Source of the DNA: Patescibacteria group bacterium
GTDB taxonomy: Bacteria; Patescibacteriota; WWE3; 0-14-0-20-40-13
Direction: 5' to 3'
NCBI GenBank assembly: GCA_018896215.1
Contig: JAHINB010000003.1
Coordinates: 3,776 to 67,775, forward strand
Length of the DNA: 64,000 bases
In this document: in pieces, positions 3,140 to 55,386 of the stretch
Position numbering within the stretch: position 1 is the first letter of the stretch
How the letters are laid out: every line of letters begins with the position of its first letter
Made by a program: the position numbers and the translations under genes
Notes under the pieces: model-generated
What the model was told of the DNA's origin: nothing
The model's database searches: none
What the model saw: only the letters and a program-made list of their open reading frames with translations

Positions 3140-4291
3140 TTGGAACTTAGGATAATCTATATGGCGATAATAGCACGAGATATATCAAAGATAGTAGAGA
3201 AATACCTCTTTAAGGGGAAGATAATTATTGTTTATGGGGCTCGCCAAGTAGGCAAAACAACCCTTGTAAGAAACATCCTTAATTCCAGCGATAGCTCCAA
3301 TGGCTATTTTAATTGTGAATTGCTAAGTGTAAAAAGGCAATTGGAGTCTTTAGAGCCTTACAAAACAAAGGAGTTTTTGGGTGATAGCAAAATAATAATT
3401 CTTGATGAAGCTCAGAAAGTAGAAAATATTGGTTTGGCGTTAAAGCAATTAATTGATACCTTTCCAGATATTCAGATAGTAGCTACTGGGTCGTCAAGTT
3501 TTGATCTGTCAAACAAGATTAACGAGCCTTTAACTGGTCGTGCTTTTGAATTTAAGTTATACCCTTTATCTATTCAGGAACTCGTTAAATACTCCGATAA
3601 AAAAATAGTTTTGGAATCATTGGACAAAATACTAACTTATGGTTTATATCCCGAGGTATATTTGTCTGGTAGGAACTTAGCCCAAAAGCTTATAGAGACT
3701 ATATCCAGTCAGTACTTGTATAAAGATGTTTTAGAAATTGAGCAAATAAAAAAGCCACAAACAATTATTCGTTTGTTAGAGTTACTGGCTATGCAATTGG
3801 GAAGTGAAGTGTCGATCACCGAATTAGCCACAACCTTGCAAATTAACTACGATACTGTAGAGCGATACCTGGATTTGCTGGAAAAGTCCTTTGTAATCTT
3901 TAGACTAAGGTCTTTTAGTCGCAACTTAAGAAAAGAAATAACCAAAAAACATAAAGTGTACTTTTATGATGTTGGAATAAGAAATGCCATTTTAAATAGG
4001 TATAACGCATTGTCTTTAAGGGAAGATATTGGTGGGTTGTGGGAGAATTTTCTTATCGCCGAAAGAATTAAATACTTGGATGGTAAAGAAATACCGTTTA
4101 ATAATTACTTCTGGCGAACCCACGATCAAAAAGAAGTTGATTATATAGAAGAAATAAATGGCAAGATACATGCCTACGAATTTAAATGGAAAGAAGAGGG
4201 AGCTAAAATCCCCGTGGAGTTTTTAAACACCTATAAAAACGCTTCGTTTAAGGTAATAAATAAAGACAACTTTTTGTCTTTTCTTGTTTAA
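3140..4291 (+). CDS. AAA+ ATPase, AAA_14/DUF4143 family (paralog 1 of 3)
   Basis: Walker A GARQVGKTTL and Walker B IIILDEAQ. The C-terminal region is typical of DUF4143 ATPases. Confidence 0.8.
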   Translation: MELRIIYMAIIARDISKIVEKYLFKGKIIIVYGARQVGKTTLVRNILNSSDSSNGYFNCELLSVKRQLESLEPYKTKEFLGDSKIIILDEAQKVENIGLALKQLIDTFPDIQIVATGSSSFDLSNKINEPLTGRAFEFKLYPLSIQELVKYSDKKIVLESLDKILTYGLYPEVYLSGRNLAQKLIETISSQYLYKDVLEIEQIKKPQTIIRLLELLAMQLGSEVSITELATTLQINYDTVERYLDLLEKSFVIFRLRSFSRNLRKEITKKHKVYFYDVGIRNAILNRYNALSLREDIGGLWENFLIAERIKYLDGKEIPFNNYFWRTHDQKEVDYIEEINGKIHAYEFKWKEEGAKIPVEFLNTYKNASFKVINKDNFLSFLV

Positions 4292-8088: not shown

Positions 8089-8486
8089 GGGGATGATGGG
8101 AATCGATTGGTAAACAAGGCGTAAAAATCAAGCCGAAAATGTTGGGTATTTTCGTTAAGATCCCAACAAAACACAAATGCTGAAGAAGCAAGTTTCGTTC
8201 CTGTAGAAGAGTACGCTTTGGCGTACGCCTAAACAGGTGTTTGGCGCCGTTTTCTTTTAGCGGACGCGCCAGGCACAACCAGAGCTAAAAGAGGTTAGAA
8301 TAGTTATGCAGGTTATCTATATTTTAATCTGATTGGGTTTCCAATCGAACTTATAACCCGGTGAGGGGGTTTTTCTTGTTCTTTTACCCCCAAAATCGCG
8401 ACTTCATTAAAAGAATAAACAAGCTTGTAAAAATTTTTGCGATATTGTTTGTCAACACGGGGGTTCAACTCCCCCCATCTCCACCA
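8089..8486 (+). ncRNA. ssrA: tmRNA (ssrA)
   Basis: The 5' GGGGATG pairs with the 3' CATCTCC-ACCA. The 3' tRNA-like T-arm is GGGGGTTCAACTCCCCC followed by ...CCACCA. An internal tag-like frame ends ...EEYALAYA-TAA, resembling the canonical ...ENYALAA. The gene sits immediately downstream of smpB. Confidence 0.8.
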
Positions 8487-28047: not shown

Positions 28048-28122
28048 TGGCTCCGCGGCCTGGATTTGAACCAGGAACCATCTCGTTAACAGCGAGCCGC
28101 GCTACCGTTGCGCCACCGCGGA
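28048..28122 (-). tRNA. tRNA-Asn (anticodon GTT)
   Basis: The reverse complement gives TCCGCGG-TG-GCGC...GCTCG-CTGTTAA-CGAGA...CCTGG-TTCAAAT-CCAGG-CCGCGGA-G-CCA. Confidence 0.85.
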
Positions 28123-28134
28123 ATACATTATATC

Positions 28135-28836
28135 TTATACCACAAAACTATCAAAAATCCCAGCCATCCACCCATTTAATAACCTTTTTACTTTAGCGTT
28201 GCCAACTCTAATAGAAAAGACTCCGTAACTGTGTATATTTTTTCTTATCTTATTACTATTGTTTTTAGGTTTTACCTTGTAGGTTTTGTGAAATCTTTCT
28301 ACTGGTATCCCAGATATTTTCGACCAAAATTCCTTAGCTTTATTTTCGTCTAAATTATCGTGAATCCATATAGCCCCCTTTAGTTTTTTATCATCCATAT
28401 CACAAAACTCTCTAAACCACCCTGCCATAAAGCTAATTACTTTGGGATCAGTGTTTGCAAATCCTATGGACTTATCACCTTTGGTACCTTCTGCACAATA
28501 AAGTGCTACCCCAATTACAAACCGATCTCTTTTTGTAAGTTTTCCTACTTGATTCTTTCCAATTTGGCGCAAATCCTCGATTTGCTTTATTCTTCTTGCC
28601 TGTTGCCTTTTTGCACCGATTATTCTACCTCTTTCTGCTCCTAATAATTTCTTTTTTGACAATCGTAAAGCTTGCTCTTCGGTTAAAGCTATATCCCTAC
28701 ACCACACGCTAAGAGTACCTTTAGAAACTACAATCTTCTCTCTAATTTCTCTGTAGGAATATCCCGAAGCCCTCATTTTTTGTGCCAGTAATTTTCTTTC
28801 GAGATCTTTGTAACCACCCATTTCTAAATGGAGCAT
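28135..28836 (-). CDS. HTH-domain protein with a possible LAGLIDADG-type homing-endonuclease motif, function uncertain
   Basis: N-terminal HTH (SYREIREKIVVSKGTLSVW), then VIGVALYCAEGTKGDKSIGF, which resembles a single LAGLIDADG/LYxAEGS motif. It lies immediately next to tRNA-Asn. Confidence 0.4.
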   Translation of the reverse strand: MLHLEMGGYKDLERKLLAQKMRASGYSYREIREKIVVSKGTLSVWCRDIALTEEQALRLSKKKLLGAERGRIIGAKRQQARRIKQIEDLRQIGKNQVGKLTKRDRFVIGVALYCAEGTKGDKSIGFANTDPKVISFMAGWFREFCDMDDKKLKGAIWIHDNLDENKAKEFWSKISGIPVERFHKTYKVKPKNNSNKIRKNIHSYGVFSIRVGNAKVKRLLNGWMAGIFDSFVV

Positions 28837-28871
28837 TGGCGTTTTTGTATATTGTATTAATCGCCTGTATT

Positions 28872-29111
28872 ATGAATTTTGGGTCAAAAAGCATGTCTCG
28901 ACCCAATTCCTTTGTTGCTCCAATTGCTTTTATTTCTCTTTTTACATTGTCAACCGCTGTTATGGGTTATTTGTTTGGTTACTTGCCCGCAACACTCTAT
29001 TTTGACGGTAAAAAGAAACAGGCCGTCAATATGTTTTTACAAACAGTCGCCGTCTTTGCGGGGCTTACGGTTGTAACTTTTGCAATTCTTTTTTCTGGTG
29101 TTATATCTTAG
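28872..29111 (+). CDS. Small membrane protein, hypothetical
   Basis: 79 aa from ATG 28872, with two hydrophobic helices. Confidence 0.35.
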   Translation: MNFGSKSMSRPNSFVAPIAFISLFTLSTAVMGYLFGYLPATLYFDGKKKQAVNMFLQTVAVFAGLTVVTFAILFSGVIS

Positions 29112-29241
29112 GACTTGATCGATAAGGAAATTTGCGTAAGAGAATTTTTTATAAATTCGTTATCAACTTTAAAACCCTCCATCATATAGTCTAGAAACTG
29201 TAATGCATACAGCGCTGTGGCTCTTTGATTGTTCTTTAGGG

Positions 29242-31269: not shown

Positions 31270-31824
31270 ATGGATTATTTTGACAGAAACAAACTCGTTT
31301 ATTACCCGCTAGACCTGCTCGGAATAAAAAGAGAACTTCCTCTTGTTGCTATTTCTCCAAAATTAAAAATCGCCTCCGTAAACCTTCTTGGAGATGTGGA
31401 GTTGGTAAATGTTTCGGCAAAAGAAATTGCCAAAAAAATTAAAAACTTAGATTATGACATGTTGGTTGGCCCCGAAGTTAAGGTTGTCCCGCTGATTCAT
31501 CAGTTGGCTACAATTACAAAATCTAAAAACTACATTATCTTTAGAAAGAATATTATGGGCTATATGGTAAAACCAGTTATGTCCTTTGGTAAGGATAAAT
31601 TGGTTCTGGATGGGCGAGATGCCGAATTGTTAAAAGGTAAAAAGGTTATTATTGTAGATGATGTGGTCTCAAGTGGTAAAACCACCCATGCCATAATTGC
31701 CCTTTTAAAAACCCTCAATACCAAAGTTGTTTGTGTAGTCTCAATATTTAAACAAGGCGATGATGAGATGTTAGATATTCCAAACTTTATTTATTTAGCA
31801 AAACTTCCCCTTTTAAAATCTTAA
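31270..31824 (+). CDS. Type I phosphoribosyltransferase (APRT/purine PRT-like)
   Basis: PRPP-binding motif KVIIVDDVVSSGKTT. Confidence 0.65.
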   Translation: MDYFDRNKLVYYPLDLLGIKRELPLVAISPKLKIASVNLLGDVELVNVSAKEIAKKIKNLDYDMLVGPEVKVVPLIHQLATITKSKNYIIFRKNIMGYMVKPVMSFGKDKLVLDGRDAELLKGKKVIIVDDVVSSGKTTHAIIALLKTLNTKVVCVVSIFKQGDDEMLDIPNFIYLAKLPLLKS

Positions 31825-32198
31825 ATAAGTTTGTAACGCTTTCGCTTCGCGAAACATTTTAGTATTTTTTCTCTAATCTTGTTATAGAAACTAGTTGACT
31901 TGGCTAGTTTAATAATTTAATGTAAGGTTGTTAGGATTACATTACAATATCCCTCGCCGAGGGAAAAAGCAGATGCTTAACTATAAATTGGCAAAATTAA
32001 TGACCACCTGTTTTTGGGTTTTTACCGAGGGTGGTTTTTTAGTCTCTAGCACTTTAAAAACTGAATATCTCATTAATTAAGCGGTAGCAAAATGCTCATC
32101 TCTTTTGAGTTGGCTATTTTGCTATCGCTTAAGCGTGGCTCCACAATTACTTTGTGGAAAGACAATTCCACTTTCAGTTCAGTTTTAGGAGGTTTTCC

Positions 32199-33287
32199 AT
32201 GTCTCGCTCAAAGATCGCTGTGTTGTTCGGCTTATCCCTTCTCGTGCTCATGAGTTCGTGCGCGAGTCCTGCCACCCCACAAGTGGTGGAAAAGATCGTT
32301 GAGAAGGTGGTCGTGGTCACTGCACAACCAGTTCCTGTAATCAAGCTCGTGCATCTCAATGTCCCGCTAGGGTGGGTAAACAATGACGAGTTCGTGGCGC
32401 TACAGGTGGCTCAAGCCAAGGGGTTCTATGCCGAGGCAGGCCTCGATGTCAACTTGATCTCTGGCGGTGGCTCCACCGGGTTCGATCCTCTGGTTGCCAT
32501 CATGGGTTTCGATGACAGTATTCGGATCGGTGTGCCGGCGGCAATGAGCTTGGTCGTCAAGGCCAAGTCGGAGGGTATTGATGTGGTAGCAGTGGCTGCC
32601 CTGACTCAAGAAGAGCCGGGCGGTTTCATTGCTCTTACCAAGTACGCCCCCCAGGCCACCGGGCTCTGTGACTTTAAGGGCAAGGTCGTCTCCATGCAAA
32701 CGGAGGCGACATGGTATGTAGATGCACTCGGAAAGCAATGCGTCACCGGTGCCCTAGTTGCTGGCGAGGACTTTACCGTCGTGCCGGCTGGTTGGACACC
32801 TGATTGCCTTCTGGCCACCGGCGCCAACCGTTGCGATTTTTATTGTGGTTGGGCGACCAACCAGGTGTTCGGTCTCGAGCAACAGGGGTTGAAGCTCGGA
32901 GTGGACTTCCAGTTCTTTCTGGCGAGCAAGTATCTGCCGTTTCACTATGCTGATGTCATCGTGGTGAACGGCGCCTGGGCCAGGAAAAACCCGGAGATCG
33001 TTCGTGGCTTCGTTCAAGCCTCGATGAAAGGGTTGCAATATACCCTCGATCATCCTGACGAAGCGGTACAGATTTCTGGTGCGGTACCGGGGATGGATCT
33101 GGCTCACGCCACCTGGCGTATCCCGATTCAGAACAGACTCGTTACCAACGAAGACACCGCCAAATTCGGTGTTGGGTACATCGATGTGGGCAAGGTTCAG
33201 GATATGATCAACCTTCTCGCCGAGAAGGACCAGATCAAGACCGAGTTCGATGCCAGCACCGTCGTCGACAGCTCGTATCTGAAGTAG
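32199..33287 (+). CDS. ABC transporter substrate-binding lipoprotein, NMT1/THI5-like (NitT/TauT family); part of the GC-rich island
   Basis: Lipobox LLVLMSSC and an NMT1-like periplasmic binding fold. Its GC-rich codon usage is unlike the flanking genes. Confidence 0.7.
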   Translation: MSRSKIAVLFGLSLLVLMSSCASPATPQVVEKIVEKVVVVTAQPVPVIKLVHLNVPLGWVNNDEFVALQVAQAKGFYAEAGLDVNLISGGGSTGFDPLVAIMGFDDSIRIGVPAAMSLVVKAKSEGIDVVAVAALTQEEPGGFIALTKYAPQATGLCDFKGKVVSMQTEATWYVDALGKQCVTGALVAGEDFTVVPAGWTPDCLLATGANRCDFYCGWATNQVFGLEQQGLKLGVDFQFFLASKYLPFHYADVIVVNGAWARKNPEIVRGFVQASMKGLQYTLDHPDEAVQISGAVPGMDLAHATWRIPIQNRLVTNEDTAKFGVGYIDVGKVQDMINLLAEKDQIKTEFDASTVVDSSYLK

Positions 33288-33320
33288 TTCTATGTTCTAC
33301 TATGAAATATGGAGGGTGAA

Positions 33321-34094
33321 ATGAACGCACTCGGGATTCAAGATCTGACCGTACGGTTCGGTAATCTAATTGCTCTTTCGCAAGTATCGTTGACAGTGCA
33401 AGAGCATGAGATCGTCGCCCTTATCGGTCCATCTGGATGCGGAAAGTCCACCCTCTTGCGTGCAACAGTCGGCATTGTGCCTGGCATGGTGCCGACTGCT
33501 CACTTAGAAGGCGGGATTGACCTCTTTGGAAAATCGCCGATCGAACGCCACAACGGCGAGGTCGATATGGTTTTCCAAGAGTCTTGTCTCCTGCCCTGGA
33601 GAACAACCCAAGCCAATATCAGGTTGGGTTTGGAAATTCTTGGCAGGAATGCAAATAACGGCACTTTACCGACCATCCTGGAAGCCATTGGGCTGACAGA
33701 CTTTGCCAATTGTAAACCCCGCGCGCTATCAGGTGGTATGCGCCAACGCGCCAGCTTGGCCACATCACTTGTGACTCACCCAAAACTCTTACTCATGGAT
33801 GAGCCTTTTGCCAACCTCGACTCCTTAACCAGAGAACAGATGTGGCAACTCGTAGAGCATCTACATTTGGATGATAAAATCCAAGCCGCATTGTTGGTAA
33901 CCCACTCCATTGAAGAGGCTGTTGCTTTGGCTGATCGGGTACTGGTAATGAGTGAGCGACCCGGTCAAATCATCGGTGAAGTGGTTGTAAGACTTCCTCG
34001 TCCTCGGATCACTCCAGAGGGGTTGTTGGTCGAAGGCTTTGGGGCGGTAGCCAACCAAGTCCGTCGTTTCATCCGCCACGGAGGTGAAGTATGA
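33321..34094 (+). CDS. ABC transporter ATP-binding protein (NitT/TauT family); GC-rich island
   Basis: GPSGCGKSTLLR, LSGGMRQRASLA and LLLMDEPFANLD motifs. SD GGAGGG precedes the ATG at 33321. Confidence 0.85.
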   Translation: MNALGIQDLTVRFGNLIALSQVSLTVQEHEIVALIGPSGCGKSTLLRATVGIVPGMVPTAHLEGGIDLFGKSPIERHNGEVDMVFQESCLLPWRTTQANIRLGLEILGRNANNGTLPTILEAIGLTDFANCKPRALSGGMRQRASLATSLVTHPKLLLMDEPFANLDSLTREQMWQLVEHLHLDDKIQAALLVTHSIEEAVALADRVLVMSERPGQIIGEVVVRLPRPRITPEGLLVEGFGAVANQVRRFIRHGGEV

Positions 34095-34834
34095 AAAGGT
34101 CACAATGGCTGGTACCGCTGGTGACCCTCACCTTCCTGCTTGTGGCCTGCGAAGTGTCACTGACGCTGGCGCGAGTATCAACCTTCATTTTCCCCAAGCC
34201 AACGCTGATCGTCAAAGCGTTGGTTGAAAACTGGGGTTGGATCGTTGCCAACTTGCAAGTCACAGCCATGGAAGCAGTTGTCGGTTTCGCCCTTAGTATT
34301 GTGCTTGGGATAACACTGTCGACGGTTTGTCTGTTTGTCCCGCAAGCCGAGAACCTCGTCGTGCCTTTCGCCATCGCCATTCGCAATGTGCCGTTTGTTG
34401 CTTTGGCGCCGATTCTCTTCATGACGATGGGATATGGTCCCTGGCCCAAGATCATCATCGTTATGATCGTTAGTTTCTTTCCAATCATGACCAATCTTAC
34501 GGCTGGATTTGCAAGCGCAGAAGTCGCTCAAAAGGAAAGATTCTTTGTATGGCGAGCGACCCGTTGGCAGATGTTTGTCAAGCTTCAACTGCCTTCGGCT
34601 ATCCCGTATTTTGTGGCAGGGTTGGAAATCGCGGTTAGTAACATCATCATTGCCGCGATCGTTGGCGAATTGATGGGAACGACCAAGGGCTTAGGATTGG
34701 TCATTATTATGGCCGTGTCCCAGTACCGGTTTCCTTTGCTGATGGCAACCGTAGTGGTTACGACAGCACTGTCAATTGTGACTACATGGTTGCTACGCCA
34801 GGCAATGCGAATTGCCTTTTCACCTTGGAATTAA
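34091..34834 (+). CDS. ABC transporter permease (BPD_transp_1, NitT/TauT family); GC-rich island
   Basis: Six TM helices and an EAA-like loop region. Its start overlaps the ATPase stop. Confidence 0.8.
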   Translation: MKRSQWLVPLVTLTFLLVACEVSLTLARVSTFIFPKPTLIVKALVENWGWIVANLQVTAMEAVVGFALSIVLGITLSTVCLFVPQAENLVVPFAIAIRNVPFVALAPILFMTMGYGPWPKIIIVMIVSFFPIMTNLTAGFASAEVAQKERFFVWRATRWQMFVKLQLPSAIPYFVAGLEIAVSNIIIAAIVGELMGTTKGLGLVIIMAVSQYRFPLLMATVVVTTALSIVTTWLLRQAMRIAFSPWN

Positions 34835-34846
34835 GGAGAGTACACC

Positions 34847-35764
34847 GTGGACTACCAATCAATCCTGGATGTTTGTAGAAGTCAGTTTGAGGCTGATGCG
34901 GCGCGAACCGCATCTGTCGGAGGTTCCGGTACCCTTGCACTGGACAAGCGTGGAGGCATCGGTTTTCCCGAGGCCCTCACTTGTGTTTGCAACGATCGGA
35001 TTCTTCGATTCGAAGAGGTGTCAACGCCATTTGGGGATGTTCCGATGGTCAAACTCTTCGCAGTCAACGGCCAACCGGTCGTGCGGATTCCGATGCACGG
35101 TTGGCGATTGCCAGTGGCGACGCTCGAACACACTCAAGCAACCTTTTGGCTACTGGATCAGCTTGGCGTTCATCAAGTGCTCGTTGACGCTAGCGTTGGT
35201 GGGATCGGAGCCAAACCCATGGATGTCGTCATCCCCGATGATGTCTACAACCACGAGCCTGCCAAGATCGCTATGGCAAAGTTGGCCTTTGAATTGGGAA
35301 GAGACCCCTGGGTTCGGATGTATCAACCCTTCTGTCCCCGCTTAAGAAGCAAGTTGGTTACCTCAGTTCGTCAGGTTAAGACGGAAGGTCATGAACTTGG
35401 CGATCTCGTCGACGGCGGGGTCTACTGGACCACGCCTCTTGGTCCGTTTGAAACGGCTTTCGAGATAGCCACCTTCAAGACTCTTGGGGCTACCATCGTT
35501 GGCCAATCATCGGGGCAGGAAGCCCTAGCCGCTCGTATTCTTGGAATGTGTTTGGCTGTGGCCAACCCGGTTGTTAACTTTGCCGAAGGGCTCAACAACG
35601 CAGGCTGGTCTGGGGACAAAGGCATGGATTCCATGTACGAAGCCATCTCTATGCCCATGGCCCTCATGGTTTACTACACTCTTGAGCGAATCGTCAGCCA
35701 GACCCGCACCTGCGACTGCCAAACCATTGCTCACAGCCCTGATTTAGCTGGGCTGACATCGTAA
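34847..35764 (+). CDS. PNP/MTAP-family nucleoside phosphorylase-like protein; GC-rich island
   Basis: The C-terminal ...GATIVGQSSGQEALAARILGMCLAVANPVVNFAEG... parallels the MTAP/PNP family-1 active-site region (G..VG.T.VPE..LA.E.G.C...A.V.N.A). GTG start with an AAGGAG SD. Confidence 0.5.
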   Translation: MDYQSILDVCRSQFEADAARTASVGGSGTLALDKRGGIGFPEALTCVCNDRILRFEEVSTPFGDVPMVKLFAVNGQPVVRIPMHGWRLPVATLEHTQATFWLLDQLGVHQVLVDASVGGIGAKPMDVVIPDDVYNHEPAKIAMAKLAFELGRDPWVRMYQPFCPRLRSKLVTSVRQVKTEGHELGDLVDGGVYWTTPLGPFETAFEIATFKTLGATIVGQSSGQEALAARILGMCLAVANPVVNFAEGLNNAGWSGDKGMDSMYEAISMPMALMVYYTLERIVSQTRTCDCQTIAHSPDLAGLTS

Positions 35765-35783
35765 TTAGGATTAGGAGGAACCT

Positions 35784-36314
35784 GTGTCCAACATTCAAGT
35801 CCTAGCTACCGAGAGGCAAATCAGGCAAGCCGTGAGAAGGATTGCTCGAGAAGTCTCTCGGCGGTACCAGGAGGAGTCGATTCTTCTGGTTGGAGTTCTC
35901 ACCGGCGCTTTCGTTTTCATGGCGGATCTGGCGAGGGAGCTCTACCGTATGGGGATGACAGATGTCGAAATCGAGTTCATCGACATATCTTCGTATAGTG
36001 GTACGGAGTCTGGGCAGATCCGTTTCGATCGTGACCTGACCGTTCCCATCAGCGGTCGGCATGTGGTGATTGTGGAGGATATCATCGATACCGGGGCAAC
36101 GCTGGCGTTCCTGTTGAAGCTCCTCGAAGTCAGGGAACCAGCCAGTTTGATTGTAGTTGCCCTGTTCAACAAGGTCACCCGGCGGGTTGAAACCCTCCCG
36201 TCAGAACGGATCATAACGGGAATTGACCTGCCTAACAAGTTCGTGGTCGGCTACGGTCTTGACCGTAACGGAAAGTTTCGGCATCTCCCTTTTGTGGGGA
36301 TTGTCGCAAGTTGA
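35784..36314 (+). CDS. hpt: Hypoxanthine(-guanine) phosphoribosyltransferase; GC-rich island
   Basis: VVIVEDIIDTGATLAFLL PRPP motif and an HPRT-like length. GTG start with an AGGAGGAA SD. Confidence 0.85.
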   Translation: MSNIQVLATERQIRQAVRRIAREVSRRYQEESILLVGVLTGAFVFMADLARELYRMGMTDVEIEFIDISSYSGTESGQIRFDRDLTVPISGRHVVIVEDIIDTGATLAFLLKLLEVREPASLIVVALFNKVTRRVETLPSERIITGIDLPNKFVVGYGLDRNGKFRHLPFVGIVAS

Positions 36315-36325
36315 GGAGAGAGACC

Positions 36326-36378
36326 AACGACCAGTTGCTTGTGGATGCTTTCACAGACAACTGGTCGTTATTTTTTTA
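36326..36378 (+). terminator. Rho-independent terminator ending the GC-rich island operon
   Basis: AACGACCAGTTG - 20-nt loop - CAACTGGTCGTT, followed by ATTTTTTTAT. Confidence 0.75.
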
Positions 36379-36396
36379 TCAAGTTGCAAATTACCC

Positions 36397-36426
36397 TTGA
36401 CAAGAAATTTTTTGTGAATGTATAGT
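36397..36426 (+). promoter_or_regulatory. Sigma70-like promoter TTGACA-N18-TATAGT
   Basis: TTGACA at 36397-36402 and TATAGT at 36421-36426, upstream of the 36438 ORF. Confidence 0.45.
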
Positions 36427-36437
36427 TAAATCCCAGA

Positions 36438-37871
36438 GTGCCTAATTACAAAAAACGAAAATTAAAATCGCAAAAGTTTCTGGAGCCAAAAAGGCTCCTT
36501 TTTTTTGTCCCAAAGATATTAAAATACGGTTTTGTTTATAAAGTCTCCGCGGGTTTGCAAATTGATTTAAACACGGTTATTAAAAAGACTCCCAAAGGCT
36601 TTGTTGAACAACACTTATGCGATCACAATTGCAGTTTAGACTGCGGTAACTACCAATGCCCCGCCGCGTTTACAGAAAACAAAGGGGCAGATCCAAAAAG
36701 TTTAATGAGTTTAGAGGAAGTCCAAAAATCTCTTAAGGTTGCATTAGAAGGGCTAAAGCTGGCTAACAAACTGTTTTTGGAAAAAGAATTTAGCAAGTAC
36801 TGTGCCGACTTTAAAATACCAGGACAGGTTCAAGACGAAATCAGGGAAACGCTAAAAAACGGTGGTTACGAGCTTAACCTTTTTGGAGGAAACCCCGAAC
36901 TCCACCCAAACTTTTTGGAAATCGTAAAAAACGCCAAAGAAATGGGTTGGGTCGTTACGGCCACAACGACAGGTAAAAAGTTCATCTACAATGACAACTT
37001 TGTTCGAGGGTTTTTGCGGAACCCACCCGATCTTTTAGCTATGTCGGCGGACGATTACGAAGACATTAACGAGCTGAACGAACTTCTTAAGATGAATGCC
37101 GAGGATCTTAAAAAATATTGGCAGAAGGCTAATCCGCTTTACGGTCAAAGAAAAAAGGCTTTCGAATCTTTATATGTAGCTAAAATTTCTAAATCGCTCA
37201 AGAGCTTTCCTAAAATACTTTTTAATATCGTAATCCATCCCGGAAACCTGCCCCACATTTTCAAATTTATCAGCGCCTTAAGGCAACGCTTTCCCAATAT
37301 CATCATAAACCCCTATCCGGCGCAATCCAGCTTTTGTTACGAAAGTCCTGTTTGGAAAACAAGGCACCTCTTACCTTTAGAAAAGGTAGTCGATTACATG
37401 ATCCAAAACCAGACAAATTCCAGGGAGAAAAATTTTGTTTCCAGGCTTCATTATTGGCTTGTTTTAAAAAGCGTGTTTCTTACCAAAATGAGCAACAAAG
37501 ACAGAACAAAACTTCTTAGTGGATGGGGAATCTGGAGTTGTTATAAAAATAGCGGGGCGGGGAGATACCTTCAAGCGGGATCTTCAAACATCATAAAAAA
37601 AGAAGTTTTCAGAGTGGGTGGTCATCCGGGATGTTTTTGGAATCGCCAGACTGTAACAGAAGCATCGAAACAACTCTGGACTATGGACAAAAAACAAGTG
37701 GTTCGTTATTTAATTAATTCTAAAATTACGCTCCCAAAAACCGCGCCAAAACCCTGCCCGGGGTGTATTATGCCCCGCCTGATGTTTGATGGCATTTCCA
37801 CGGAATTAGGGCTTTCCTCTAAATTGATTCCGGCTTATTTAAAGTTACGAAAGGAACATTATGGTTTTTAA
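36438..37871 (+). CDS. Hypothetical protein with an N-terminal Cys cluster (C-x3-C-x3-C-x4-C), possibly a non-canonical Fe-S/radical-SAM-like enzyme
   Basis: HLCDHNCSLDCGNYQCP and later NLFGGNPELHP (GGEP-like). The start codon is uncertain (GTG at 36438 or a later site). Confidence 0.4.
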   Translation: MPNYKKRKLKSQKFLEPKRLLFFVPKILKYGFVYKVSAGLQIDLNTVIKKTPKGFVEQHLCDHNCSLDCGNYQCPAAFTENKGADPKSLMSLEEVQKSLKVALEGLKLANKLFLEKEFSKYCADFKIPGQVQDEIRETLKNGGYELNLFGGNPELHPNFLEIVKNAKEMGWVVTATTTGKKFIYNDNFVRGFLRNPPDLLAMSADDYEDINELNELLKMNAEDLKKYWQKANPLYGQRKKAFESLYVAKISKSLKSFPKILFNIVIHPGNLPHIFKFISALRQRFPNIIINPYPAQSSFCYESPVWKTRHLLPLEKVVDYMIQNQTNSREKNFVSRLHYWLVLKSVFLTKMSNKDRTKLLSGWGIWSCYKNSGAGRYLQAGSSNIIKKEVFRVGGHPGCFWNRQTVTEASKQLWTMDKKQVVRYLINSKITLPKTAPKPCPGCIMPRLMFDGISTELGLSSKLIPAYLKLRKEHYGF

Positions 37872-54193: not shown

Positions 54194-54300
54194 TTTGCTT
54201 TATGTAACTTATAGCCATTGTTGTTTATCTTGTGTAGATCGTATAAAATTTGGCAGTTCAAAACAACACTAGGTTGCATCACTCACACAAGGAGGAGGAA

Positions 54301-55386
54301 ATGAACACAGGTGCCGTATTGGTAGGGGACGCTTTTTGGGGCGACAGTGGCAAGGGTAAAGGTGCCGCCTGGCTTGCGCTGATGTATAGCGCACAGATAG
54401 TTCTTCGTGGGGGCGGGGGTCCCAACGCCGAACATGGGATCTTTGTGGGAGAGCACTATGTTCGAACCAACCAGCTTCCGCTTAGTTGGATTTTAGCAGG
54501 ATGTCCGATTGCGATTGGGTCTGGGACTGCAGTGGATCCAGTCAAGTTGCTTTCCGAGATGGAAAGATTTGGTCTTGGTTCTGATAGAGTCCACATAGAT
54601 CCCCGTTGCCCTATAGTGGAAAGCAGGCACATAGCACAAGAGGTAGCAGATGCGGATATGGAAGCCATTGGTTCGACAAAGAGTGGGACGGGAGCCACAC
54701 TGGTCGAATTTCTACGACGAGGAGAAGAGGTACGGCAAGCAAAAGATGTACCGCAACTTGCACCACTTATCCAAGATGTTGTGGTACTCTCCAACAAACT
54801 GGCAAGGGATGGGGTTGTGGTCGTTGAGGATGGCCAGGGATTTTGGCTGTCCTCGCGCTATGGAGAATATCCTAATGTGACCTCCAAGAACTGTACAACT
54901 GGGGCCATGATCGATGCCATAGGTCTGGGTTGGAGGTTAATCGGGGAAGTTTGGCTTATGGTGAAATCAAAACCCACGAGAGAGGGGAAGGGTGGTATGG
55001 GAAAATGCAGAGAGCTTACACTAAAAGAGATGAGACGGAGGGGGTTAGTGGAAGCCAGTTCGATTGGGGGTGTTCCCAGAAGGAAAGTTGATGGGATCGA
55101 CTTCGACCTGCTGAAATACGCAGTTATGGTCAATGCACCGACTCACATTGCGTTGACCTTCGCAGAGCACCACGACCCCGAAGTTTCTGGGGTTACGAGT
55201 GCCGATAAGCTTACGCCAAAGACGAGGGAACTCATCGCAAGAGTTGAGAGGGAAACGGGGGTGCCGGTGGGGATGGTCGACACGGGAAAGCAGTTCAACC
55301 ATGTTGTCAGTATCCCCCCGACGATGCCTATTCCCGAGCTGGACGAGAAAACGCTTGCCCGTTTGGCGTCGTATGTAGGGAGGTAG
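54301..55386 (+). CDS. purA: Adenylosuccinate synthetase-like protein, short (archaeal-type length, about 361 aa), in a GC-richer segment
   Basis: P-loop-like GDAFWGDSGKGKG (compare QWGDEGKGK), GGGGPNAEHG (compare GG.NAGHT) and GSTKSGTGAT (compare TT.RGIGPAY). SD AAGGAGGAGG precedes the ATG at 54301. GC is clearly above the flanks. Confidence 0.7.
   Translation: MNTGAVLVGDAFWGDSGKGKGAAWLALMYSAQIVLRGGGGPNAEHGIFVGEHYVRTNQLPLSWILAGCPIAIGSGTAVDPVKLLSEMERFGLGSDRVHIDPRCPIVESRHIAQEVADADMEAIGSTKSGTGATLVEFLRRGEEVRQAKDVPQLAPLIQDVVVLSNKLARDGVVVVEDGQGFWLSSRYGEYPNVTSKNCTTGAMIDAIGLGWRLIGEVWLMVKSKPTREGKGGMGKCRELTLKEMRRRGLVEASSIGGVPRRKVDGIDFDLLKYAVMVNAPTHIALTFAEHHDPEVSGVTSADKLTPKTRELIARVERETGVPVGMVDTGKQFNHVVSIPPTMPIPELDEKTLARLASYVGR

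Follow-up and report, generated by a model that had tools for sequence, protein, structure and literature searches.

How might a member of the Patescibacteria, which lack de novo nucleotide synthesis and obtain purines from partners by a poorly defined route, come to hold a compact set of GC (guanine plus cytosine)-rich genes for purine acquisition within an AT-rich chromosome? The question is raised by a 64,000-nt stretch of DNA from a Patescibacteria group bacterium (hereafter the window; GenBank assembly GCA_018896215.1, contig JAHINB010000003.1, positions 3,776 to 67,775), which contains an island of five genes at 32199-36314 encoding an ATP-binding cassette (ABC) importer, a phosphorylase-like protein and a hypoxanthine phosphoribosyltransferase (HPRT). 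We read the island, with a probability of about two in three, as a horizontally acquired five-gene operon for purine uptake and salvage that entered the Patescibacteria chromosome from a GC-richer genome, at a locus bounded by a phosphoribosyltransferase (PRT) gene and upp. The general phenomenon is known; the module described here, its phosphorylase subfamily and the foreign signature shared by purine genes are new.

Composition, continuity and layout of the island

The island is compositionally foreign in GC content, GC at third codon positions (GC3), codon, amino-acid, oligonucleotide and Shine-Dalgarno (SD) usage. Its GC content is 53.2%, against 38.8% in the rest of the window, a z score of 6.2 relative to all other 4.1-kb windows, the highest of which reaches 44.4%; 1-kb windows at 32-36 kb have 51-54% GC and almost all others 32-46%. 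An earlier annotation made from the sequence alone (the sequence-only reading) had put the island at about 55-60% GC, which was right as to elevation and slightly high as a figure, with individual genes at 50-56% and only 200-nt windows getting to 58.5%. Of its two spot counts, that at 3181-3240 held (31.7%, claimed as 32%) and that at 32401-32460 came to 55%, not 57%. The abrupt switch in composition and codon usage that it described was borne out by sliding-window GC, GC3 and tetranucleotide tests, all of which show the island as an outlier. GC3 of the five genes is, in order, 0.66, 0.52, 0.58, 0.57 and 0.62, against 0.33, 0.42 and 0.36 for the neighboring PRT, radical S-adenosylmethionine (rSAM)-like and upp genes and 0.26-0.49 for nearly all other open reading frames (ORFs); among the approximately 76 ORFs of the window, only the five island genes and one at 54250-55386 exceed 0.5. 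The tetranucleotide distance of the island to the rest of the window is 0.052, compared with 0.0148 ± 0.0022 for other 4-kb windows, the corresponding correlation is -0.06 (other windows, about 0.9), and the Karlin GC-normalized dinucleotide distance (delta*) is 0.183, compared with 0.047 ± 0.019 and a maximum of 0.094 elsewhere; these tetra- and dinucleotide signatures lie 7-17 standard deviations off the host. Lysine is encoded by AAG at a frequency of 0.73 in the island and 0.27 in the host, and isoleucine by ATC at 0.59 and 0.18; K, N and Y are used less and A, G and V more, and GC at the first and second codon positions (GC1 and GC2) deviates together with amino-acid usage, SD usage and the dinucleotide signature. 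A strong SD (GGAGG or AGGAG) precedes 5/5 island genes and 2/17 neighbors (Fisher p ~0.001), as had been noted; the GTG starts named alongside it occur in only two of the five genes, those of the phosphorylase and the HPRT. GC rises at ~32150-32200 and falls at ~36315-36380 (at 200-nt resolution, ~32100-32250 and ~36250-36400), and the right boundary, of both composition and alleles, lies at 36315-36321.

Could these values reflect a GC-rich fragment of another organism that was joined into an AT-rich contig by assembly or binning? Recovered contigs do break at or near the boundaries, with L002 and L004 starting at 31886, L010 at 36321, L012/L022 and L023 at 36383 and L006 ending at 35826, and the host genome was not returned by the scan of GTDB species representatives. 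Exact-protein look-ups, which recovered the locus from other assemblies (ENA, NCBI metagenome-assembled genomes [MAGs] and Logan runs), nevertheless found both junctions spanned by six independent assemblies at 99.9-100% identity, including ENA ERZ928008, GCA_043825695.1, GCA_043827225.1 and Logan SRR26275510, and one junction spanned by several more (ERR2191545, SRR27458548, SRR26275509, SRR35107410, SRR35106543 and SRR27458547), at least ten in all. The NCBI source names of the recovered assemblies are Candidatus Parcubacteria bacterium or Patescibacteria group bacterium, and every 99.9%-identical strain recovered carries the island. As the contigs that cross the junctions come from different samples and assemblers, and the operon's leader and terminator are interwoven with the promoter and terminator elements of the host, we reject a chimera and regard an assembly or binning artefact as extremely improbable; the preference of the sequence-only reading for an insertion with AT-rich host flanks over a chimeric contig was upheld. 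The breaks at the boundaries fit strain heterogeneity or assembler trouble at the hairpin, and continuity stands.

The five genes lie on the forward strand, and Pfam confirmed the content proposed for them (NMT1 SBP, ABC_tran, BPD_transp_1, PNP_UDP_1 and Pribosyltran/HGPRTase). They encode a substrate-binding protein (SBP), a lipoprotein of the NMT1/THI5 type that is ThiY-like (32199-33287; PF09084, 1.3e-30; GC 55.6%), an ABC ATPase (33321-34094; PF00005, 3.6e-28), an ABC permease (34091-34834; PF00528, 2.9e-21), a divergent phosphorylase with the fold of purine nucleoside phosphorylase (PNP) and methylthioadenosine phosphorylase (MTAP), which we call PNPl (34847-35764; PF01048, 6e-17), and a hypoxanthine-guanine phosphoribosyltransferase (HGPRT, the HPRT above; 35784-36314; GC 53.5%). 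The last scores 156.2 bits against TIGR01203 (cutoff 150) over residues 6-174 of 176. A GTG at 32154 had been taken as the start of the SBP gene; the ATG at 32199 is likelier, having AGGAGG 7 nt upstream and opening a lipoprotein signal and lipobox, MSRSKIAVLFGLSLLVLMSSC. Most gene callers place the ATPase start at 33321, behind a GGAGGG, an alternative at 33309 giving 261 amino acids, and the permease gene shares its first 4 nt with the end of the ATPase gene. Because only short gaps (21 or 33, -4, 12 and 19 nt) separate the genes, and an intrinsic terminator follows them, a single transcript for all five is likely. This terminator, already called at 36326-36378 and confirmed here as a hairpin with a T-run on the forward strand, has 18-nt arms (36326-36343 and 36352-36369) and a folding free energy of -30.8 kcal/mol over 36326-36369 (z -6.5). 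The nucleotide-salvage character of the neighborhood was likewise confirmed, with a PRT gene of the adenine phosphoribosyltransferase (APRT)-like PRK07322 subfamily upstream (31270-31824, forward strand; NCBIfam NF005592, 165 bits against a cutoff of 143; GC 34.8%) and upp downstream.

Predicted roles of the importer and the phosphorylase

The theme of uptake and purine salvage proposed for the island agrees with its predicted domain content. The three importer components (PF09084 SBP, BPD_transp_1 and ABC_tran) are all above the Pfam gathering thresholds and are encoded adjacently or with overlap in one operon. The best Protein Data Bank (PDB) matches of the SBP are 4nmy and 3ix1, the latter being ThiY, which binds N-formyl-4-amino-5-aminomethyl-2-methylpyrimidine (FAMP); in NCBIfam the ATPase comes nearest to SsuB, TauB and NrtCD and the permease to SaoP/SsuC/NtrB-like models, all below cutoff. 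Among the characterized equivalogs SsuABC, TauABC, NrtABC, ThiXYZ and SaoXPA, none was reached (SsuA_fam, 35 against 163; SsuB, 168 against 395; SaoP, 72 against 295). The importer therefore resembles ThiXYZ/ThiY (3ix1) and the NitT/TauT systems in its PF09084 fold family, its three components and the heteroaromatic class of its predicted ligand, and differs from them in equivalog scores far below cutoff and in its genomic partners, a phosphorylase and PRTs instead of genes of thiamine or sulfur metabolism. In known nucleoside ABC importers the SBP is of the Bmp/PnrA type. Like them, the island combines a lipoprotein SBP and an ABC importer with salvage enzymes, a set that would provide nucleotides for a bacterium unable to synthesize them, and relatives of the host carry Bmp SBPs beside the PRT gene; unlike them, its SBP is of the NMT1/THI5 type, not Bmp (PF02608), and its transporter of the NitT/TauT type. 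We know of no member of this SBP subfamily for which a ligand has been described, and an importer of the NMT1 type paired with a phosphorylase of this subfamily is an uncharacterized variant.

Two associations elsewhere connect NMT1-type transporters with purines. On the Polaromonas sp. P1-6 plasmid CP087967.1 (L036, 7343-19933), genes for an NMT1-type SBP, an ATPase and permeases have as neighbors a LysR regulator and the genes for an S-methyl-5'-thioinosine phosphorylase and a nucleoside deaminase, an independent association. In Proteobacteria, the xanthine (NMT1 motif) riboswitch ties NMT1/tauA-type transporter genes to purine metabolism (PMC7373994); these systems resemble the island in linking NMT1/THI5-like SBPs with purine, not thiamine, and differ from it in that the motif is reported only in Proteobacteria and the genes serve purine oxidation, not salvage (PMC7373994).

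The phosphorylase, which NCBI labels a hypothetical protein, scores 62 bits against PF01048 (cutoff 25) and reached none of the named NCBIfam equivalogs, PunA, XapA and PNPH included (MTAP, 78 against 275; methylthioinosine phosphorylase [MTIP], 66 against 223; PRK08202 PNP, 45 against 218). Members of its family are few: of 1.84 billion cluster representatives, only 43 reach E <= 1e-30, and a word-indexed search gave 31 matches. An AlphaFold2 model (predicted local distance difference test [pLDDT] 91, predicted template modeling score [pTM] 0.91) matched trimeric PNP and MTAP about equally in Foldseek, at a probability of 1.0 and a template modeling (TM) score of ~0.7. With trimeric PNPs (PunA, XapA and human PNP) and with MTAP/MTIP it shares the fold and the GGSG, R..HG, DASVGG, FET and N-x-AEG motifs; it differs in its 16-21% identity to solved structures, in a Gln for the Met of 'GMS' in most members, and in an extra Cys-x-Cys and a 'PFCPR' Cys.

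What, then, might its substrate be? The residues invariant in a 25-sequence family alignment (G26, S27, R80, H84, G85, A115, S116, G118, G119, E202, N244 and E247) align with PNP/XapA and MTAP motifs, and the roles of the conserved phosphate- and base-contacting residues are known from the PNP literature. E202 corresponds to the Glu of FET, and the counterpart of N244 is the Asn in PNP/XapA 'TN[ML]A[AE]G' (N-x-AEG), positions occupied by Ser and Asp in MTAP 'RFST...VTDY'; the window protein reads 'LGPFETAFEI...VGQSSGQEALAAR...VNFAEGL' where E. coli XapA reads 'GPNFETAAEI...VGMSVVPEVISAR...TNMAEGL'. By sequence, the N-terminal half is MTAP-like and the C-terminal half nearer to PNP/XapA than to MTAP. 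Glu and Asn at the positions equivalent to E202 and N244 specify 6-oxopurines in PNP enzymology, whereas MTAP uses Asp for adenine. Because the invariant E202 and N244 match PNP/XapA, not MTAP, we predict that the enzyme acts on inosine, guanosine or xanthosine, 5'-modified inosine being possible. Its conserved cysteines, C163 in 'PFCPR' and a C-terminal C289-x-C291 of which C291 is invariant, could form a metal or disulfide site; to our knowledge, cysteines of this type are not a feature of classical PNP or MTAP.

The module and the PRT...upp locus in other genomes

A scan of GTDB species representatives for the phosphorylase returned three genomes, L018 and L019 (Microgenomates ADurb.Bin219), both Patescibacteria, and L020, a Chloroflexota MAG; look-ups added L021, L031 (GCA_040961665.1, a 925-kb contig), L032 and the P0005 contig. 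SBP-ATPase-permease-phosphorylase is a rare four-gene module of other Patescibacteria, and a conserved one, because the phosphorylase directly follows the three importer genes in all seven loci, with gaps of 4-17 nt where measured. The module proteins are ~47-86% identical to those of the window in Patescibacteria and 32-40% in the Chloroflexota MAG. In L018, L031 and the P0005 contig, the gene immediately before the module is a PRT homologue, and in L019 one lies 4 kb upstream of it; the sequence-only reading, which saw the PRT gene as a host-like flank, was right about its native composition, but the gene is no mere flank, given that a homologue usually accompanies the module elsewhere. The HPRT gene, by contrast, is an extra gene joined to the four and does not belong to the module at other loci. 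Its relatives comprise a 99% copy and an 82% variant (L024), all others being at most 50% identical, and the named matches at 45-50% come from Actinomycetota, Chloroflexota, Bacillota and Atribacterota and are uninformative on the donor.

Is high GC a property of the module itself? In the Chloroflexota genome L020, module and flanks both have 65% GC, and the module is native. The module is richer in GC than its host in L031, by 12 points (48-54%, GC3 0.52-0.64, against flanks of 35-43% that include a native-looking PRT gene, flank GC3 0.27-0.42), in L019, by 7 points (51.6% against 44.2%), and in L021 (45-51% against 35%, the latter from a 355-nt tail only). In L018 (delta* to the flanks, 0.052) and in L032, the composition of the module is close to that of the host. 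Because these two copies are host-like, we rejected high GC as intrinsic to the module genes; for the GC-rich copies, the best reading is that they arrived comparatively recently from genomes of higher GC. In small neighbor-joining trees the window and L021 fall together within a clade of Patescibacteria; Chloroflexota form the outgroup, and GC-rich and GC-poor copies are interspersed. The sequence-only reading had set against itself the case of best hits confined to one lineage of similar GC; the relatives found are of that kind in part, belonging to the same phylum, and do not share the host's GC.

The PRT gene has orthologues in Patescibacteria at 98, 82, 79, 77, 73 and 60% identity, the smooth series expected of a native gene, and contigs found by this orthology were used to judge whether relatives lack the island. 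On those with the closest orthologues (~73-82%), the module is not downstream of the PRT gene; other GC-rich purine genes are there instead. In L025 (GC-rich segment 12477-16538), genes for PRT (40% GC) and inosine monophosphate (IMP) dehydrogenase (39%) precede genes for a Bmp SBP (61%, GC3 0.79), adenine deaminase (59%) and an HPRT-like protein (52%, 37% identical to the HPRT of the window), followed by upp (43%); its PRT and upp are 79% and 81% identical to those of the window. L033 (6971-11806) has PRT, Bmp (59% GC), adenine deaminase (58%) and Bmp (57%); L027 (10921-13578) has PRT and an 885-aa Bmp protein (58%); and L029 (6214-6852) has PRT and a Bmp fragment (61%). In these four contigs the genes beside PRT exceed their surroundings by 10-20 GC points. 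The Bmp-Ade-Bmp blocks (Ade, adenine deaminase) of L025 and L033 are syntenic (PRT 75% and Bmp proteins 59% identical). We read the PRT...upp interval as a hotspot for different GC-rich purine cassettes.

These segments of 1-4 kb, partly non-homologous, share a signature that is suggestive of a common donor type: delta* is 0.04-0.09 among GC-rich purine segments of different genomes, 0.12-0.19 between them and their own host flanks, and 0.07-0.22 relative to controls of similar or higher GC (E. coli, Polaromonas, Neorhizobium and Chloroflexota). The ORF at 54250-55386 (forward strand) may belong with them. It encodes a PurA-like adenylosuccinate synthetase (PF00709, 1e-40; GC 52%, GC3 0.53) that is short and archaeal-type, scores 251 bits against NF003295 (below the cutoff of 368) and has weak PurZ similarity, and its delta* is 0.075 to the island and 0.154 to the host; adenylosuccinate synthetase serves purine interconversion, in the branch from IMP to adenosine monophosphate (AMP). 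It is possible, although we lean against it, that the purine uptake and salvage genes of this branch of the Patescibacteria (the NMT1-ABC and PNP-like module, HPRT, Bmp SBPs, adenine deaminase and the PurA-like synthetase) form one distinct, compositionally coherent GC-rich pool that has been delivered repeatedly to the PRT/upp hotspot from a single GC-richer donor type, conceivably the symbionts' hosts. If so, the foreign signature could identify the hosts of Parcubacteria, whose nucleotide dependence would be met by serial gene capture. Even apart from such a pool, a compositional fingerprint common to non-homologous purine genes might point to a shared donor or host.

Strain variants and vehicles of transfer were also sought. 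Contig L024 (ENA ERZ27247128 k141_228962, 1.9 kb) carries the 3' half of the phosphorylase gene and the HPRT gene at 81% nucleotide identity and 51-55% GC. It matches window positions 28048-28681 and 35278-36461, with identity rising from 81% to 98% at the HPRT stop and terminator; its upstream part, joined via a 14-nt overlap, holds tRNA-Asn and the neighboring gene and is 99.4% identical to 28048-28681, and L024 represents either a chimera or a divergent allele of the island that has lost 6.6 kb by deletion. A plasmid vector was rejected, as a tblastn search of plasmids with the phosphorylase gave only ordinary MTAP-like genes at 26-29% identity, and so was a phage vector, blastn of the island against phages having given no match.

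The function and the origin assigned to the island each have competitors. The importer might take up not purines or nucleosides but the thiamine pyrimidine (hydroxymethylpyrimidine [HMP] or FAMP) or a sulfonate-, nitrate- or bicarbonate-type solute, with phosphorylase and HPRT merely co-located; ThiY and THI5 among the best solved relatives of the SBP, and the affinity of ATPase and permease to SsuB/TauB/NrtCD and SaoP/SsuC/NtrB, would fit this. Yet all of these equivalog scores are far under their cutoffs, the phosphorylase gene follows the importer genes in 7/7 loci from two phyla, usually next to PRT, and both the Polaromonas neighborhood and the genes under xanthine riboswitches link NMT1-type transporters to purines, and we consider a non-purine importer quite unlikely. 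The phosphorylase, for its part, might be a methylthioadenosine (MTA), 5'-deoxyadenosine or methylthioinosine phosphorylase that recycles by-products of S-adenosylmethionine, for example from the adjacent rSAM-like enzyme, leaving adenine to be salvaged by the upstream APRT-like PRT, and not a general inosine/guanosine enzyme. Its best whole-protein family and PDB sequence matches are indeed MTAPs and MTIP, JGI labels some family members MTA phosphorylase, and the rSAM-like gene lies directly downstream with the APRT-subfamily PRT gene upstream; but the adenine-contacting Ser/Asp of MTAP is replaced by the invariant Glu/Asn of PNP/XapA 'FET...TN[ML]AEG', the C-terminal half leans the same way, and the rSAM-like gene is native in composition and absent from other module loci, which leaves this role unlikely. 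As to origin, the cluster, adjacent to PRT, might be long resident, ancestral for this part of the Patescibacteria and vertically inherited, its high GC kept by a gene-specific force (codon or mRNA selection) or by repeated gene conversion or allelic replacement. Such a history would agree with the adjacency of PRT and cluster in three further loci and their proximity in L019, with a GC jump after a native-looking PRT gene in L031 despite ~50% protein identity, with the syntenic GC-rich blocks of L025 and L033, with the GC-rich L024 allele and with the failure to find mobility genes or att-like repeats. It agrees poorly with the host-like cluster of L018 and the nearly host-like one of L032, with contigs of the closest PRT orthologues that are without the cluster, with the joint deviation of GC1, GC2, amino-acid usage, SD usage and dinucleotide signature, as foreign DNA would show, and with ribosomal and other housekeeping ORFs of the window that are not GC-rich; on balance we judge it unlikely.

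Several observations nonetheless weigh against the acquisition of a purine operon by recent transfer. In L031 (6551-10930), a PRT gene (GC3 0.34) is followed by a GC-rich cluster whose proteins are 46-57% identical to those of the window, and this recurrence of the same boundary between a native PRT gene and a GC-rich SBP gene is striking and only partly explained; because of it, a single recent insertion is not the whole story. Together with the syntenic GC-rich blocks of L025 and L033, it points to recurrent transfer to the same site or to maintained high GC. Because the 81%-identical L024 allele keeps the same GC, the island (if not all of it, then its 3' part) occurs in more than one clone and did not arrive very recently. 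The nearest module homologues, those of L021, are 68-86% identical, no donor lineage was identified from the genome scan and cluster look-ups, and the trees are small neighbor-joining trees, gene trees taken without a species tree. No integrase or transposase lies in or next to the island, the only flanking direct repeats are 12-21-nt matches of chance level, and the nearest tRNA gene, tRNA-Asn at 28048-28122, lies 4 kb upstream and not directly adjacent. As to function, the specificity predicted for the phosphorylase hangs on two aligned residues, and the nearest solved relatives of the SBP, whose ligand is likewise a prediction from sequence, bind thiamine pyrimidine.

We thus favor horizontal transfer, as the sequence-only reading did, though not as one-off cargo from a distant phylum: because the module is conserved in other Patescibacteria, the likeliest donor pool is intra-phylum. 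The module would pass among Patescibacteria with a patchy distribution, as a rule next to a member of this PRT family, and the copy in the window would have come from a GC-richer genome, most likely an unsampled Patescibacterium, been joined by the HPRT gene and landed in the PRT...upp locus. Genomic islands and mostly intra-phylum horizontal gene transfer have been described in groundwater Patescibacteria (PMC12455944). Those islands resemble the present one as segments of foreign composition with metabolic and transport genes in a streamlined genome of the candidate phyla radiation, with homologues mostly intra-phylum; the paper makes no mention of purine salvage, and the island here has no integrase, repeats or adjacent tRNA and occupies a locus that holds different purine cassettes in relatives.

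In the operon as we picture it, transcription would start in the leader upstream of the SBP gene, run through five packed genes with strong SDs and stop at the hairpin at 36326-36369. Outside the cell, the SBP lipoprotein would bind a nucleoside or a heterocycle of purine type, for import by permease and ATPase; the phosphorylase would split a 6-oxopurine nucleoside (likely inosine, guanosine or xanthosine, possibly 5'-modified inosine) with phosphate into base and ribose-1-phosphate; and HGPRT would convert hypoxanthine or guanine and phosphoribosyl pyrophosphate (PRPP) into IMP or guanosine monophosphate (GMP). The neighboring PRT and the PurA-like enzyme would extend the route. An NMT1-type ABC importer, an unannotated PNP/MTAP-fold phosphorylase and HGPRT would in this order make a concrete candidate for the purine route of Patescibacteria, based on a module that recurs across the phylum, and the locus is evidence for lateral gain of such genes at a defined salvage locus. 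The module also suggests a candidate function for an SBP subfamily without an assigned ligand and for a phosphorylase family labeled 'hypothetical protein'.

Leader, neighboring genes and other features of the window

The operon is preceded by an AT-rich, strongly structured leader of 374 nt (31825-32198, forward strand), whose RNA fold over 31905-32200 has a free energy of -90 kcal/mol (z -5.7 against shuffles). Among its elements are a terminator-like hairpin at 32008-32034 that runs into a stretch of T (to 32040), a hairpin with 26-bp arms at 32077-32132 and another at 32154-32171 just before the SD; the leader may act as an attenuator or a novel cis-regulator. A known riboswitch in the leader, including the xanthine NMT1 motif, was rejected: Rfam gave no riboswitch in the window at gathering thresholds and no match of relevance in 31780-32260 at E up to 10. 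The leader is not alignable with those of L018 and L019. In L009, a 71-bp deletion (31815-31885) takes out the PRT terminator hairpin.

Downstream of the operon terminator, a strong sigma-70-like promoter (36397-36426, forward strand; TTGACA-18-TATAGT, 11/12 positions matching) precedes the rSAM-like and upp genes. A strain from the same kind of sample, with an overall identity of 88.6% (rSAM-like and upp genes), shows no difference from the window over 36383-36507. The rSAM-like gene (36438-37871, forward strand) is native in composition and encodes 477 amino acids with weak radical-SAM similarity (PF04055, 3e-4; viperin-like, 2e-5), for which close families were not found. An island-less sister was sought with this gene in a metagenome scan and was not found, only the same strain and the 88.6% strain being recovered, with the contig of the latter beginning at the junction. 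In GCA_043812435.1 (L011, 1-1255), a frameshift splits the gene into pieces of 204 and 157 amino acids; L011 was rejected as an island-less variant, as its contig begins inside the frameshifted gene. A 20-nt inverted pair, 85% complementary (31977-31996 and 36410-36429), the right arm of which overlaps the -10 box of the rSAM-like gene, is probably due to chance.

The surroundings of the module in L031 include genes for seryl- and aspartyl-tRNA synthetases (SerRS and AspRS), GreA and Lon. Within the window, a variable segment at 28054-29237, by tRNA-Asn, is replaced in the 99.9%-identical L001/L013 by ~4 kb with AbiEii, a DNA_alkylation protein and others, and looks like a tRNA-adjacent integration spot. 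A tmRNA gene at 8089-8486 (forward strand), with the tag peptide AEEASFVPVEEYALAYA, is ordinary and confirms the context of a bacterial chromosome.

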